A stretch of 64,000 nt of DNA from Chiloscyllium plagiosum (taxonomy: Eukaryota), in contig NC_057733.1 in NCBI RefSeq assembly GCF_004010195.1, positions 25,341,058 through 25,405,057 of the forward strand, given 5' to 3'. Of this stretch, positions 21,085 to 36,104 are shown in pieces. The translations under genes were made by a program, and so were the position numbers. The number at the start of each line of letters is the position of its first letter. The first letter of the stretch is position 1. The notes under the pieces are model-generated. The model saw only the letters and a program-made list of their open reading frames with translations, was not told where the DNA came from and searched no databases.

Positions 21085-21151
21085 ATGGTTCCACAAAGAA
21101 TACAGCTTCTTCAGGTTCTTTTCATTTGGATGATTTCAGGAGTAAAGACAG
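21085..21151 (+). CDS. CD7: CD7-like gene, coding exon 1 (signal peptide MVPQRIQLLQVLFIWMISGVKT)
   Basis: AGAATGG start in good Kozak context, hydrophobic core, phase-1 donor CAG|GTAGGA that joins in frame to the V exon (G+AT = Asp). A possible acceptor TTGACAG ends at 21067. Confidence 0.75.
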
Positions 21152-21446
21152 GTAGGAGATCCTTTCTTCAGGATTTTCTGTGAAATCTTCTCAATGCCAA
21201 CAGCCAGAAGTCAATTCAAATGCTAATGTTTCTTTTATAAGTGAAGAATATTCAAGATCTGTTTTATACAATACATCAGGCTCAAGTGATTTGATGTGTT
21301 CAATGTTATTTAAGATTCTTTCAAAATCCGTCTGCCACTTCTCACTTCAGTTTTCAAATTTTCCTTAAAATATCACTTTAACTAAGCTCTTATCATTTTT
21401 CCTATGCCCCTCTCTTTGATGATATTGAATTCCTTACCCCATCCTG

Positions 21447-21780
21447 GGGCGGCGCAGTGACTTAGTGGTTAGCACTGCTGCTTCACAGCGTCAGGGACCC
21501 AGGTTTGATTCCAGCCTCGGGCGACTGTGTGGGGTTTGTACATGCTCTCCCTGTCTGCGTGGGTTTCCTCTGGGTGCTCTGGGTTGCTCTCACAATCCAA
21601 AGATGTGCAGGTTAGATGAATTGGCCATACAAAATTGTCCATTGTGTTCAGGGATGTGGTTAGGTGCATTTATCAGGGGTAAATACAGAGTAGGGGAATG
21701 GGTCTGGGTGGGTTACTCTTTGGAAGGTCAAGGTGGACTGCTTGGCCGAAGGACCTGTTTCCACACTGTAGGGATTCTAA
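21447..21780 (+). mobile_element. HE1-type SINE (CD7 intron 1)
   Basis: Same structure as the other HE1 copies. Confidence 0.85.
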
Positions 21781-21929
21781 TTTTTAATGTTCTCAGGAGT
21801 GGTTTGGTACATGTTTCTAGGTCAAAAGCAATTCATAAGGATGTAAATAATTGTTCTAGTATGTAATTAAGTGATCACTTCAACATCATTAAAGCTGAGA
21901 TTAATTAACTAAAAAATATTTCAACCTTA

Positions 21930-22430
21930 TAATCTCCCTACCATAGAAAAGATGTTGTGAAACTTGAAAGGGTTCAGAAAAAAAAATTGCAAGCATGTTG
22001 CCAGAGTTGGAGAGTTTGAGCTAAAGGGAGAGACTGAATACATTGCAGCTATTTTCCTTAAAGCTTGAGAGGCTAAGGGGTGACCTTATAGAGGTTTATA
22101 AAATCATAATTGGAATGGATAGGGTAAATAGACAAAGTCTTTTCCACAGAGTGTAGGAGTCCAAAACTAGATGGCATAGGTTTAAGGTGAGAGGGGAAAC
22201 ATTTACAAGCGATCTAAAGGGCAACTTTTAGATGAGTGTATGAAATGAGTGCCAGAGGAAGTGGTGGAGGCCAGTACAATTACATTTAAAAGGCATCTGA
22301 GTAAATAGAAAAGGTTTAGAGGATATGGACCAAATGCTGGTAAATGGAAACTAGATTTATTTAGGTTGCCTGGCTGACATGGACAAGTTGGACCAAAGGA
22401 TCTGTTTCCATGTTGCACATCTTTATGGCT
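21930..22430 (+). mobile_element. CR1 3' fragment
   Basis: KDVVKLERVQKK..RLRGDLIEVYKII and CR1 tail. Confidence 0.8.
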
Positions 22431-22505
22431 TGATTATAATAATTATTTACACAGAAATAGTGTAATATTATAATTACAGAGCTTTCATTGAACAACATTG
22501 AATTC

Positions 22506-22661
22506 GTGATGTAGAGATGCCGATGTTGGACTGGTGTGGACAAAGTCAGAAGTCAGGCGACACTAGGTTATAGTCCAACAGGTTTATTTGAAATCACAAG
22601 CTCCTAAAGTTTGTGATTTCAAATAAACTTGTTGAACTAAATCTGGTGTTGTGTGACTGCT
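22506..22661 (-). mobile_element. Miniature fold-back PLE derivative (156 bp) with 12-bp TSD
   Basis: TSD AACATTGAATTC at 22494-22505 and 22662-22673; internal inverted repeat; sequence similar to the termini of 42919-44740. Confidence 0.8.
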
Positions 22662-23256
22662 AACATTGAATTCAGCATGTGTTATTTAGCCAGAGTTCAT
22701 AGAATAGATTTTGAAACACTGTTTGTATTTCAAATTGATGATTCACTGAAATTATGTGCTGTTCAGTTGAACTGTTTGAAATGAAGCTAAACTGATTTCT
22801 TAATACTCAGAATCATTTCTCCTCATTCAAGCATTTGTTGATTAAAATGTTTTCAATATTTAATCTCATAACTATTTTACAAATTATTTGGATCTTGTTT
22901 ATAGTAAGTTTTGGAAAGTACATATGAATATGATGTACATTCCTTGCCTCTTCAAAATACATTCAGCTTCACAGGTCCACATTGACATCATTAGTATACA
23001 CTTCAATCCTAAATACTCAATACGTCTGACTAAACGTCAGATCATCAACCCAATGTACTGTATAACTTTCAAAGTTGTCCGTAGGTTGACATTTCATTTA
23101 TCATCTAAATCCTTCAGAAAATTGAATAAATATACAGGAACCAATACAATAGCATTGAATGAAAAAGTGCATATTTTTATGCAAATCCTCAATCTCAATT
23201 ACATCTTTCTTGTCGAATATCAGTTCAGACAAAACTCTGATTACAGGTTATGTATA

Positions 23257-33240: not shown

Positions 33241-33269
33241 AATATGGGTATCCTTGGATTATATGGGTT

Positions 33270-34132
33270 CCCTTAGAGTGCAAAGGGACTTTGATCAGAA
33301 GGGCTGAAGGGTCAAGAAATAGAAGATTAAGTTTAATGCAGCGAAATCTGTGCTGCATTTTAGAGTGACAATTCAGGGCAGGACTTATACATTTAATAGT
33401 AAGCTCCTGGGGATTGTTGTTGAACAGAGACACCTTGGAGGGCAGATTCACGGTTCTTTGACAGTACAGTCACAGGTAGACTCTACAGGTGGGAGTGAAG
33501 GAGGTGTTTGGTATGCTTGTCTTTATTGGTTAGTACATCGAGTATAAGATTTGGGAGGTCATGTTGTGGCTGTATAGGACATTGGTTAGGCCACTTTTGG
33601 ATTACTGTGTTCAATTCTGGTCTCCTTGCATAGGAAGTATGTTGTGAAACTTGAAAGAGTTCAGAAAAGATTTACAAGGATGTTGCCGTAATTGTAAGGT
33701 TTGAGCTATAGGGAGAGAGTGAATAGGCTGGGGCTGTTTATCCTGCATCGTCGGAGGTTGAGAGGCGACCTTATACAAACATTTACATGAAGGGCATAGG
33801 TAGGGTGAAAAGCCAAGGTCTTTTCCTCAGGGTGGGGGAGTCCAAAACTAAAGGGCATAGGTTTAAGATGAGAGGGGAAATGTTTAAAAGGGACCTAAGG
33901 GGTAACTTTTTCACATGGAGGATGGTGTGTTTATGGAATGAGCAGCCAGACAGAGTAGGGGAGGCTGGTGCAATTACAACATATTCATATTGCTGGTATA
34001 TGAATAGGAAGGGTTTAGACACCTCTGGACCAAGCATTGACAAATGGGACTAGATTAATTTAGGATACCTGGTCAGCATGGCCGTGTTGGGCCGAAGAGT
34101 CTGTTTCCGTGCTGTATAACTCTACGACTCTA
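33270..34132 (+). mobile_element. CR1 3' fragment
   Basis: LYRTLVRPLLDYCVQFWSP, MKGIGRVKSQGLF, DLRGNFFT; CR1 tail. Confidence 0.88.
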
Positions 34133-34404
34133 TACCATGGAGTGCAAGGTTTAAGATGTCAGCTCACCACCACTTTCTCAAGTGTAGCAATAGATATACA
34201 AAAGTATTGGCATTGCCAGTGATGGTCACATTCCATGAATAAATAACAAACAAAATTTGAAGTTCCCAACTGATGTAGAACATATTTTTCCTTCTGTAAA
34301 GAATCCAGAATTTTATAGAAAATGAAAATAATTTCATGACAATATGGAGGTCTTATATATGGAAATATTTACAGAAAACAATGAAATATTTTGTATCTTT
34401 TCAG

Positions 34405-34547
34405 AATCCAGGATGAAAGACTGTAAAGCTGATTGTGGAGAAACAATAAATTGTAGAGAATTTTCATATAAGGATCCAATTGTGATTGGTGTGATTGTCG
34501 TTGCAACAGTGGCTATTATTTGTGCTTTGGTTTTGATATTTTGGCAT
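34405..34547 (+). CDS. CD7: CD7-like gene, exon 3 (Cys-rich stalk and transmembrane helix)
   Basis: Acceptor TATCTTTTCAG, donor CAT|GTGAGT, phase 1/0; ESRMKDCKADCGETINCREFSYKDP-IVIGVIVVATVAIICALVLIFW-H. Confidence 0.9.
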
Positions 34548-34964
34548 GTGAGTTCCTAATTTCTTTATAACAAATATTTCTTCCATTTTAAGTATAATAA
34601 GAAATATCATGAAACAAATTCAATTAATATAAATTCAAATAGTACAGTTGAACAATTATCTAGACTGTTAACCTGATAAAAAAAAAGCATGTTGTGTGTT
34701 ACCATCCATTTAAAAATTGATATCTGTTAAATTGTTTCAGATATACCTGATATATACTCAAAGATTCTAAGAGATAGCATTAAAATTATTCTGGGTTGCT
34801 CCTTGGCCAATCTATGATCATCCTCTAACTGTCTCTCCCCTTGAAAGTAGGAAAGATTTCTGACTGAAAAAGGAAGCGAAGAAACTGCCTTTTTTTTCTC
34901 AGATCTTGTCTGAAATATGAAATAAATCAACATGGAATATTGTACACATTTGTTAGTAAAAATG

Positions 34965-35440
34965 TGAATGCACTGGAGAGAGTGTCAAAGTGATTTACAA
35001 AAGTGGTTCCAGGAATGAGAAACTCCAGTTATGAGGATAGTTCGAAGATGCTGGGACTGCTCTCCTTGGAGAGAAGAAGGTAGAATGGAGATTGCCACAA
35101 GGTTTCAAATTCATGAGTAGGCTGGATAGAATAGATAGGGAGAGGCTGTTCTTGCTTATAAACTGAAAAGAAATGAGAGGACTCAGATGTAAGGTGATGT
35201 GAAAAGGAAGCAATAATGTGAGGAAAACCTTTTTCACAGTGAATAGTTCTGCACTGTGTGGAAACGTGATGGAGCTAGGTTCACTTAAGGCATTCGTGGG
35301 GGCATTGGATGATAATTTGAATACAAATGATGTGGTGGATATGGGGAAAAGGCAGAAGATTGGTACTAGGCTAATAGAACTAGTGCAAGCAGAATGGAAC
35401 AAATGGCTTCCTTCTGGGCTGTAACAAATCTAGGATTCTG
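34965..35440 (+). mobile_element. CR1 3' fragment
   Basis: ALERVSK*FTKVVPGMRNSSYED and VRKTFFTV. Confidence 0.75.
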
Positions 35441-36002
35441 GGATACTTAATGAACATTTCATAGTCTGGAAGCACAACCATAGAATTTCCCCTCTCCTCA
35501 GAGGCTTCTTGTCAGCCACAGAGGGCTCTGTTCCTTGCTTCTAAGTCAAACAGCCTGGGTTCAAATTCTAGCTGTCTGAAACACGTGTCAAAAGATGTCT
35601 TAACAGCTCGGTTAAAAACAGCTACACAAACCCACAGAAGTGAGGGTATGACATAGGGCAGTATTACCAGCCATAGAACACTGCTCATTCTGTTTCCTGT
35701 GTCAGTTATTTTCCATGCAGTTACGTAACTCGGTGATTCGCAAATGTTATCTATCTTAGAGACACCTTCTGAAAATGGCCGGGTTTTTGGGGTCTCATTA
35801 TTCTGTTTTTAGAAATATGAAATGCCAAGGCAGTATTAAATAAGGATAATTCATTACCAGTTATAATGACATACATAAAGTTAATTCTGAATGAACAGCA
35901 TATATGGAATCATCCTGATCTGCAAGCTGTAGAGTTTGCTACTTAGAAATCGAAATGACAAAGCAGAGGAATACAATTTCTAAAATGTGATTTTGTTTTT
36001 AG

Positions 36003-36104
36003 GCAAGGAAAAGATGCCAACCTGAAATGCCAACACATGGGAGAGCTCCAAACTCAGTTTATGAGGACATGAACCTAATCCGAACCCAAAGTGTGGGACG
36101 TTAG
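36003..36104 (+). CDS. CD7: CD7-like gene, exon 4 (cytoplasmic tail with YEDM) and stop
   Basis: Acceptor TTTTGTTTTTAG, phase 0; ARKRCQPEMPTHGRAPNSVYEDMNLIRTQSVGR*. VYEDM is the CD7 signature motif. Confidence 0.92.
   Translation, partial: ARKRCQPEMPTHGRAPNSVYEDMNLIRTQSVGR

Follow-up and report, generated by a model that had tools for sequence, protein, structure and literature searches.

CD7, the CD28 family, SECTM1 and the B7 family are the closest described systems. The human gene order is CD7-SECTM1-TEX19-UTS2R (PMC4603632). SECTM1 carries two cysteines, Cys38 and Cys55, spaced 17 residues apart (PMC4603632), and was described as eutherian-specific by a 2015 study. Signalling by mouse SECTM1A is reported to be CD7-independent (PMC3769348); thus, a true relative of SECTM1 need not act via CD7. 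A link between CD7 and PI3K through a YEDM motif has been reported, as stated in the title of the source. The same motif occurs in the tails of CD28X and CD28H (PMC11599192), so YEDM is not diagnostic for CD7. That 2024 survey of the CD28 family makes no mention of CD7, the sole 'cd7' string in it being part of CD79. A literature search, with most subscription journals outside its scope, found neither a paper with CD7 of cartilaginous fish as its subject nor one on a SECTM1 outside mammals.

A CD7-like gene is present in the bamboo shark, Chiloscyllium plagiosum, within the 64,000-nucleotide stretch of DNA analysed here (the window; position 1 is its first letter). Four coding exons of 67, 339, 143 and 102 nt, with GT-AG introns of phases 1, 1 and 0, are joined in one frame that encodes a type I membrane protein of 216 aa, composed of a hydrophobic leader, an IgV domain, a Cys-rich stalk and a transmembrane segment at about residues 161-183. 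An earlier sequence-only reading had proposed this structure, and the same exon ends, phases and frame were recovered. It had also stated that the leader and tail exons are missed by the open reading frame track, which holds, as the V exon is the sole coding exon that appears as an ORF of at least 80 aa. The coding part is complete as that reading claimed, but the full extent of the gene is larger, with an additional non-coding 5' exon and a 3' UTR that runs to at least 36721. The features are as follows.

About 19651 to 19881 (start approximate), + strand: non-coding 5' exon; assembled contig X5 joins 19651-19879 to 21068, and the donor GT is at 19882
21068 to 21151, + strand: exon 2, with 17 nt of UTR, the ATG at 21085, the signal peptide (aa 1-22) and a phase-1 donor
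21085 to 21151 (67 nt), + strand: first coding stretch; the AG acceptor of the whole exon is at 21068
21152 to 30004, + strand: GT-AG intron of 8,853 nt with SINE/LINE-type repeats inside; splice in 4/4 runs, repeats recognized by depth
30005 to 30343 (339 nt), + strand: IgV exon, aa 23-135
34405 to 34547 (143 nt), + strand: stalk and transmembrane exon, aa 136-183, with Cys142, Cys146 and Cys152 and a phase-0 donor
36003 to 36104 (102 nt), + strand: cytoplasmic tail exon, aa 184-216 and the stop codon; it carries basic residues for stop transfer as well as VYEDM (Tyr203)
36105 to 36721, + strand: 3' UTR, minimum extent; contig X1 reaches 36721, AATAAA is at 36484, and the UTR enters a repeat

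Short upstream ATG frames lie inside the non-coding 5' exon. Junction-spanning transcripts had been named as a check on the gene model, and all three coding junctions were found in contigs from four public assembled runs: junction 1-2 in all four (X1, X2, X5 and X7), and junctions 2-3 and 3-4 in two (X1 and X2). The contigs are presumably of RNA origin; none of the runs that contain the sequence is recorded as RNA, and the comparison included no certain DNA control. In the raw single-cell runs X11 and X12, no reads fell on the exons in the approximately 2% and 6% of reads sampled. The gene had been called hidden, but it is already annotated: the spliced product is identical to the NCBI protein 'T-cell antigen CD7-like' of C. 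plagiosum, so the CD7 name is not new. A 2026 supplement likewise maps LOC122562100 to human CD7, and the present analysis firms up an existing machine label.

The V exon matches the Pfam V-set family (E 1.8e-8) and encodes the Cys45-Cys113 pair, a spare Cys89, three N-glycosylation sites and no PPP loop. Alignment with human CD7 places Leu at the site of the canonical C-strand Trp (G-x-Y-L-R), as the sequence-only reading had noticed. By a crude count, Trp occurs in the C-strand stretch of 0/8 cartilaginous and 7/48 bony rows, vs 7/8 light chains. A YEDM-type motif is found in 43 of 54 CD7-like proteins, and the bamboo-shark tail carries it at Tyr203; its presence was correctly noted before, but not its value as a sign of CD7, given the YEDM tails of CD28X and CD28H. 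In four other sharks the tail is 85-97% identical. A Pfam match of the stalk to the PAN domain fell below the Pfam cut-off and was taken as a match of cysteine pattern.

Database searches lead from the shark gene to CD7 and back. Human CD7 is the best PDB match for both the V exon (E 3.9e-9) and the whole protein (E 6.3e-9), this half of the reciprocal test having been run against the PDB and not the whole human proteome. In the other direction, human CD7 as query ranks this V exon at the top of its 69 matches in the bamboo-shark genome (E 1.1e-5; the second at 3.6e-4). No paralogue was found in the genome, the next match being at E 0.26, which indicates a single copy; seven of the nine lower-scoring loci that were fetched read as Ig light-chain V exons. 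Searching 1.84 billion proteins with a profile recovered ray orthologues first, followed by CD7-named proteins of caecilian, bird, Xenopus, lungfish, gar, bilby, bat and human. The isoforms of human CD7 diverge at junctions matching the shark phase-1 and phase-0 junctions (2 and 3). Junction 1 of human CD7 matches the shark leader/V junction. The exon plan (L/V/stalk-TM/CYT) that had been claimed as common to both is thus upheld, with human junctions 2 and 3 deduced from the isoforms.

Gene order agrees with CD7 on one side. On contig C24 are found a NARF-family gene (- strand, 24.18 Mb), CYBC1 (+, 24.21), UTS2R (-, 24.88), four B7-type genes (+, 25.227-25.325) and the CD7-like gene (+, 25.36-25.38). 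The order and strands of human CYBC1 and NARF match this upstream side. As for the CSNK1D side, genes of CSNK1D type, FASN and DUS1L type lie on the same contig at 5.6-6 Mb from the CD7-like gene, so the synteny link there appears to be broken; the CSNK1D-type gene is on the strand of the CD7-like gene, beside FASN and the DUS gene. Thus, of the flanking synteny named as a check, the NARF/CYBC1/UTS2R side was found, and the CSNK1D side was found on the same contig but at a distance. A motif scan of 200 kb on each side of the gene revealed no CK1 or MCT exon. A FASN candidate from a PS-DH family search was rejected as a polyketide-synthase-like ORF on C5, and a search for HEXD via the hexosaminidase family gave exons on C2 only.

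A different assignment would make the gene a CD28-family receptor of the CD28X or CD28H type, with a likeness to CD7 at the family level only. Besides the shared YEDM tail, this reading draws on the CD28-type second cysteine pair of the ray orthologues and on the V-domain trees. The AU test rejects neither the shark gene with the CD28 family (p-AU 0.335) nor one CD7 clade (p-AU 0.257), and a tree of 63 rows unites bony CD7 with the CD28 family while the shark rows stand apart (support 82/84). The trees were reduced from 82 rows to 63 and 29 by leaving out one unnamed protein, near-copies and rows on long branches (CD300-like, NITR/BTN-like and TCR-like), and one CD28H-type protein in the alignment was treated as CD28 family. 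They place CD7-like and CD28-family rows on one branch separate from Ig light chains (100/100) and set the genome's five exons of the CD28 family in a group that excludes the shark gene (95/85); as phylogeny they neither confirm nor reject CD7. Other evidence stands against a CD28X or CD28H gene. A CD7 profile built from 11 V domains of database-named bony-vertebrate CD7, a set that came from a search seeded with a shark profile, scores the shark V domain at 76 bits, vs 9-41 bits for those five exons, and a CD28-family profile scores it at 30.5 bits; a lungfish CD28H-type protein reaches 66 bits on the CD7 profile. No CD28, CTLA4 or ICOS chain was among the best 60 PDB matches listed. The CDR3-like loop of the shark gene has neither PPP nor EIP, and PPP is found in 5/5 of the genome's CD28-family exons, which lie on C7 and C12 and not beside UTS2R on C24. 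The marker genes also differ, being pudp, sts and anos1 for CD28X and fsd1 and stap2 for CD28H (PMC11599192). Membership in the CD28X/CD28H group is therefore considered quite improbable. A lineage-specific IgV receptor, of the CD300/CMRF35-like or another kind, is hardly credible. It might be read from the NCBI label 'CMRF35-like molecule 1' of the Hemiscyllium orthologue (86% identity) and from three CD300-like rows in the same open fork of a quick tree; CD300-like V domains reach 17-29 bits on the CD7 profile, and the shark gene is single copy, lacks the C-strand Trp and lies in the UTS2R/CYBC1 region. The reciprocal match, the profile, the missing PPP loop and the upstream gene order, with the trees neutral, support the earlier proposal of a CD7 orthologue, and we infer with high confidence that this intact, spliced, single-copy gene is one.

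The expression of a T/NK-cell marker, as had been proposed, is not evident in the shark. A bamboo-shark single-cell marker table, in which genes are listed from about 25% of cells upward, has the CD7-like gene under kidney tubular cells alone (28.2% vs 5.1% of cells, log2FC 0.59) and not among T-cell markers. In a gut atlas it appears in no shark top-30 list, that of T cells included, whereas paddlefish CD7 is listed and marks 69-80% of T cells. The gene could accordingly be a CD7 orthologue that is mainly epithelial in sharks, e.g. in kidney tubules, or that has a ligand other than its neighbours. We regard this as unlikely. The fold change in tubules is small, the level per positive cell outside the tubule cluster is about four times higher by our arithmetic, as expected of a lymphocyte subset below the 25% cut-off, and the 3' UTR enters a repeat able to attract mis-mapped reads. 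The PI3K-type tail is among the best-kept parts of the protein, and the paddlefish gene marks T cells.

Four intact tandem B7-type V+C genes, outside the window, fill the slot between UTS2R and the CD7-like gene, which is the slot of SECTM1 in mammals. Each encodes an IgV domain, an IgC domain resembling that of PD-L or B7-H3 and a transmembrane segment, with a C exon in 4/4. The best PDB sequence matches are CD276, PD-L1 and PD-L2 (E 2e-9 to 1e-6), and the best fold matches are butyrophilins, PD-L2 and B7-H6 (Z 12.5-13.3); the AlphaFold model from 10 sequences had a pLDDT of 69.6, as compared with 35 from 3 sequences. Their N-terminal cysteines are 16 residues apart in 4/4 paralogues and in 11/11 shark proteins of gene 1, a spacing seen in 0/82 other V domains (3 of the 82 are too cut to register). 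SECTM1 was not among the matches listed in the PDB sequence and fold searches, nor among the ESM Atlas rows for a whale-shark homologue of neighbour 1, which fell in generic V-set, CD200 and butyrophilin clusters; neither result excludes anything. Neighbour 1 (LOC122562094) has been published as a marker of B cells (30.9% vs 3.5% of cells; PMC11372145 supplement). All four have the C exon and are thus not classed as SECTM1 but are relatives at most, a relationship that position and cysteine layout somewhat favour.

The explanation as a whole, a likely CD7 orthologue that is likely a co-stimulatory receptor with its ligand possibly among the four neighbours, is judged to be probable. By analogy with human CD7, the shark protein is likely a glycosylated and probably disulfide-linked receptor signalling through Tyr203. 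Its IgV domain would be engaged by a ligand, possibly one of the upstream B7-type proteins, whereupon the YEDM tyrosine would recruit PI3-kinase and the protein would likely work as a co-stimulatory surface receptor. Binding of shark CD7 to these candidate ligands is itself on the doubtful side. Tentatively, and just short of an even chance, CD7 and SECTM1 may be an overlooked receptor-ligand pair of the CD28:B7 type, linked in a single locus ever since jawed vertebrates arose, placental SECTM1 then being such a gene minus the C domain and not a eutherian invention. The locus matters more than shark CD7 as such, which was expected. If the neighbours are relatives of SECTM1 and ligands of CD7, then CD7 has a ligand in non-mammals, SECTM1 derives from the B7 family, and an additional co-stimulatory pair existed in early jawed vertebrates; as CD7 ligands, they would make the CD7-ligand pair far older than mammals.

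Compared with known systems, the shark gene shares the IgV-TM-tail layout and the YxxM motif with the CD28 family (CD28, CTLA4, ICOS, CD28H and CD28X), the CD28-type second cysteine pair being kept in rays, and differs from it in the PPP/EIP loop, chromosome and marker genes. With human CD7 (NP_006128, PDB 12hp) it shares a single IgV domain, a stalk, a transmembrane segment and a short tail, as well as VYEDM and the Leu that replaces the C-strand Trp. UTS2R on the upstream side is common to both, and CD7 is named in lungfish, gar, amphibians and birds too. The shark stalk is short with three Cys, whereas that of human CD7 is long and Pro/Ala; the G-strand GxG, kept in rays, is missing, and the spare Cys89, the non-coding first exon and a CSNK1D gene 5.6 Mb off are further differences. 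The neighbours share the V+C+TM layout of the B7 family (PD-L1, PD-L2, CD276/B7-H3 and butyrophilins), but their V domain is without its usual B-F disulfide, and no named B7 member can be singled out for them. As compared with the published description of SECTM1, a single Ig domain, they have kept the B7-type C domain and number four, and gene 1 has four more cysteines. In the SECTM1 motif GXYXWXLXGXQ, the G, Y, L and later G are matched by genes 2-4 and the W, Q and L-G spacing differ, so that the match is a partial one, G-x-Y-x-aromatic-x-L followed by G. Like SECTM1/K12, all four are type I membrane proteins in the UTS2R-CD7 slot, with an N-terminal cysteine pair and no F-strand cysteine in the V domain.

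The main interest of this region lies in the locus, a CD7-like gene with B7-type neighbours, the CD7 label itself being known. The spliced product is identical to an NCBI protein of Chiloscyllium plagiosum (P0001, XP_043570560/1, 'T-cell antigen CD7-like'), and the label is not new but already in databases. The four exons proposed in the sequence-only reading were confirmed, with AG/GT ends, phases 1,1,0 and a single 216-aa frame. They had been taken as the complete gene; the four stand, but the total is five exons, since a non-coding 5' exon is also present.

Exons of the CD7-like gene (window positions)
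~19651-19881, +, non-coding 5' exon, joined to 21068 in one contig
21085-21151, +, first coding exon
30005-30343, +, second coding exon (V)
34405-34547, +, third coding exon
36003-36104, +, fourth coding exon
reaching 36721, +, 3' UTR, extended by another contig

Junction reads had been proposed as a check, and all three coding joints were found in assembled public contigs of presumed RNA nature, with no certain DNA run among them. Joint 1-2 is spliced in four of four assembled runs, and joints 2-3 and 3-4 in two of four; introns of 8,853, 4,061 and 1,455 nt are removed exactly at the predicted GT-AG sites. These contigs are taken as spliced RNA because little else would explain why three GT-AG introns are so precisely missing. 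Within the non-coding exon, an upstream ATG opens a six-codon, out-of-frame uORF (19867-19881 plus 21068-21084); the matching ATG is used in frame in the Hemiscyllium X1 isoform (P0007), giving a 12-residue N-terminal extension. A decayed CR1-type LINE lies upstream of the gene (8043-11806), and assembly gaps fall within repeats at 37249-37946 (698 N) and 54937-55330 (394 N).

After a leader, the product has an IgV domain recognised as Pfam V-set (E 1.8e-8), a stalk containing three cysteines and a transmembrane helix (~161-183); the YEDM motif, with Tyr203, stands in its tail. Its top PDB match is human CD7, and of the 69 matches of human CD7 in the bamboo-shark genome the V exon ranks first; in this reciprocal comparison, suggested earlier and made against PDB one way and the genome the other, the two are best for each other. 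Only one copy is present in the genome, the next best of 15 matches standing at E 0.26. Orthologues of the gene from C. punctatum, Hemiscyllium, Stegostoma and Rhincodon, at 69-93% identity, bear differing labels: CD7-like, CMRF35-like or uncharacterized. A profile search gave 176 proteins at E <=0.001; the 20 matches looked up, from the best 150 of the 176, include three rays and nine clusters named CD7 or cd7-like (gar, smelt, lungfish, caecilian, Xenopus, bird, bilby, bat and human). Among the open-access papers covered, none was found that studies CD7 in sharks.

Membership of the CD28 family has to be weighed against CD7 identity. The YEDM tail, read earlier as a sign of CD7, is present but is not decisive, because CD28X and CD28H are reported to share it (PMC11599192, available part). 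All five CD28-family V exons of the genome carry PPP, which is absent from the CD7-like V exon when compared with them; unlike these five, the CD7-like gene lies on contig C24.

CD28-family V exons
C7, three clustered CD28/CTLA4-type exons (L056, L058, L059)
C12, two EIPPP-type (CD28H/CD28X-like) exons (L055, L057)

A profile was built from the V domains of 11 bony-vertebrate proteins named CD7, a set drawn from the shark-seeded search and hence biased toward the CD7 reading. On it the CD7-like gene reaches 76 bits and a lungfish CD28H-type protein 66, with the five CD28-family exons at 9-41. Phylogeny, also proposed as a check, gave a divided answer on 110 V-domain columns: the six CD28-family rows of a 29-row tree share one branch (95/85), from which the shark gene is excluded, yet in a 63-row tree the CD28 rows group with bony CD7, separate from the shark rows (82/84). 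AU tests on the 29-row tree reject neither a single CD7 clade (p-AU 0.257) nor the shark gene with the CD28 family (0.335). The ray orthologues share with the CD28 family a second cysteine pair at CD28-type positions, of which the bamboo shark keeps Cys89 alone. This unpaired residue (V exon, 30005-30343) is replaced by Trp in C. punctatum and by Tyr in Stegostoma and Rhincodon. The gene is real and is likely to be CD7, and we infer orthology.

The window occupies G000:C24:25341058-25405057, and the genes placed along the contig are these.

Gene order on bamboo-shark contig C24
24.18 Mb, -, NARF-family gene
24.21 Mb, +, CYBC1
24.88 Mb (L098:8859-9998), -, single-exon UTS2R, E 5.6e-116 against the human receptor, ~346 kb upstream of the B7-type cluster
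G000:C24:25226951-25325100, +, cluster of four B7-type genes (L026, L025, L024, L020, L016)
25227128/25228138, +, V/C exons of a B7-type gene
25246541/25250955, +, V/C exons of a B7-type gene
25286529/25288083, +, V/C exons of a B7-type gene
25322882/25324173, +, V/C exons of a B7-type gene
25.36-25.38 Mb, +, CD7-like gene
30.96 Mb, +, CK1 delta/epsilon-type exon
31.32 Mb, +, FASN-type exons
31.39 Mb, +, DUS gene

The expected synteny is kept on the upstream, UTS2R side, whereas the CSNK1D side is 5.6 Mb off. The human order is CD7-SECTM1-TEX19-UTS2R (PMC4603632, available part). Long ORFs and motifs were scanned over 1.06 Mb (24.54-25.61 Mb), a search that small-exon genes would escape. Fragments of retrovirus-like gag, pol and env ORFs adjoin UTS2R (G000:C24:24885975-24906369, -). 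Distinct from FASN is an intronless 1,856-aa frame with polyketide-synthase acyltransferase and dehydratase domains (L014, G000:C5:85.03 Mb, -).

The four tandem genes between UTS2R and the CD7-like gene share the strand of the latter, and the closest ends ~36 kb ahead of its first exon. All four are built of a leader, a V, a C and a TM exon, the frames being open. Gene 1 (LOC122562094, P0160) has orthologues in ten other sharks. Its sequence matches CD276, PD-L1 and PD-L2, and its predicted fold (pLDDT 69.6) matches butyrophilins, PD-L2 and B7-H6 (Z 12.5-13.3; rmsd 3.3-4.0 over 179-188 residues in four of the top five rows); sequence and modelled fold together group it with B7 proteins.

In the bamboo-shark marker table, gene 1 is a B-cell marker (log2FC 4.13, 30.9% vs 3.5%), and LOC122562100, 'T-cell antigen CD7-like', has one entry, in kidney tubular cells (log2FC 0.59, 28.2% vs 5.1%) (PMC11372145, available part). 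From its shared name and single copy, we infer the latter to be the CD7-like gene; it is mapped to human CD7 in a supplement (PMC13689627, available part). It is not among the T-cell markers in the part of the table available, whose rows begin at ~25% of cells, so that expression confined to fewer T or NK cells would escape (PMC11372145). CD7 appears in top-30 T-cell lists for two paddlefish data sets only (PMC13689627, same supplement), and was not found in one supplement of PMC10529500 or in the available part of PMC10770119.

Around the observed structure, splicing and gene order of the locus, a mechanism may be proposed because human CD7 is so described (PMC2193045; PMC13223139; available parts); the former cites by title a paper linking YEDM and PI3K. 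The product would most likely be a glycosylated surface receptor (Asn37, 95, 119), probably disulfide-linked, in which V-domain ligation would cause Tyr203, within the YxxM motif, to be phosphorylated and PI3-kinase p85 to be recruited as a second signal for lymphocytes. The cytoplasmic tail is 85-97% identical across sharks. The best candidate ligands would be the four neighbours, with gene 1 on B cells; against this counts a report that mouse SECTM1A signalling is CD7-independent (PMC3769348, available part).

SECTM1 is reported missing from non-eutherians, and its Cys38 and Cys55 are invariant, as is the Trp of the motif GXYXWXLXGXQ (PMC4603632, available part); no non-mammalian SECTM1 study was found among the open-access papers covered. 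The V domains of all four neighbours have no F-strand cysteine and carry one 16 residues ahead of that of the B strand, a layout shared by 11 of 11 stored gene 1 proteins and by none of 82 other V domains (three could not register). Gene 1 has six V-domain cysteines and genes 2-4 only two each; in genes 2-4 the G, Y, L and later G of the motif agree, and W, Q and spacing differ. A possible homology with SECTM1 is suggested by position and cysteine layout. The neighbours resemble SECTM1 in their place between UTS2R and CD7 and in their cysteines, and the locus suggests an ancient, linked pair of CD7 and B7/SECTM1.
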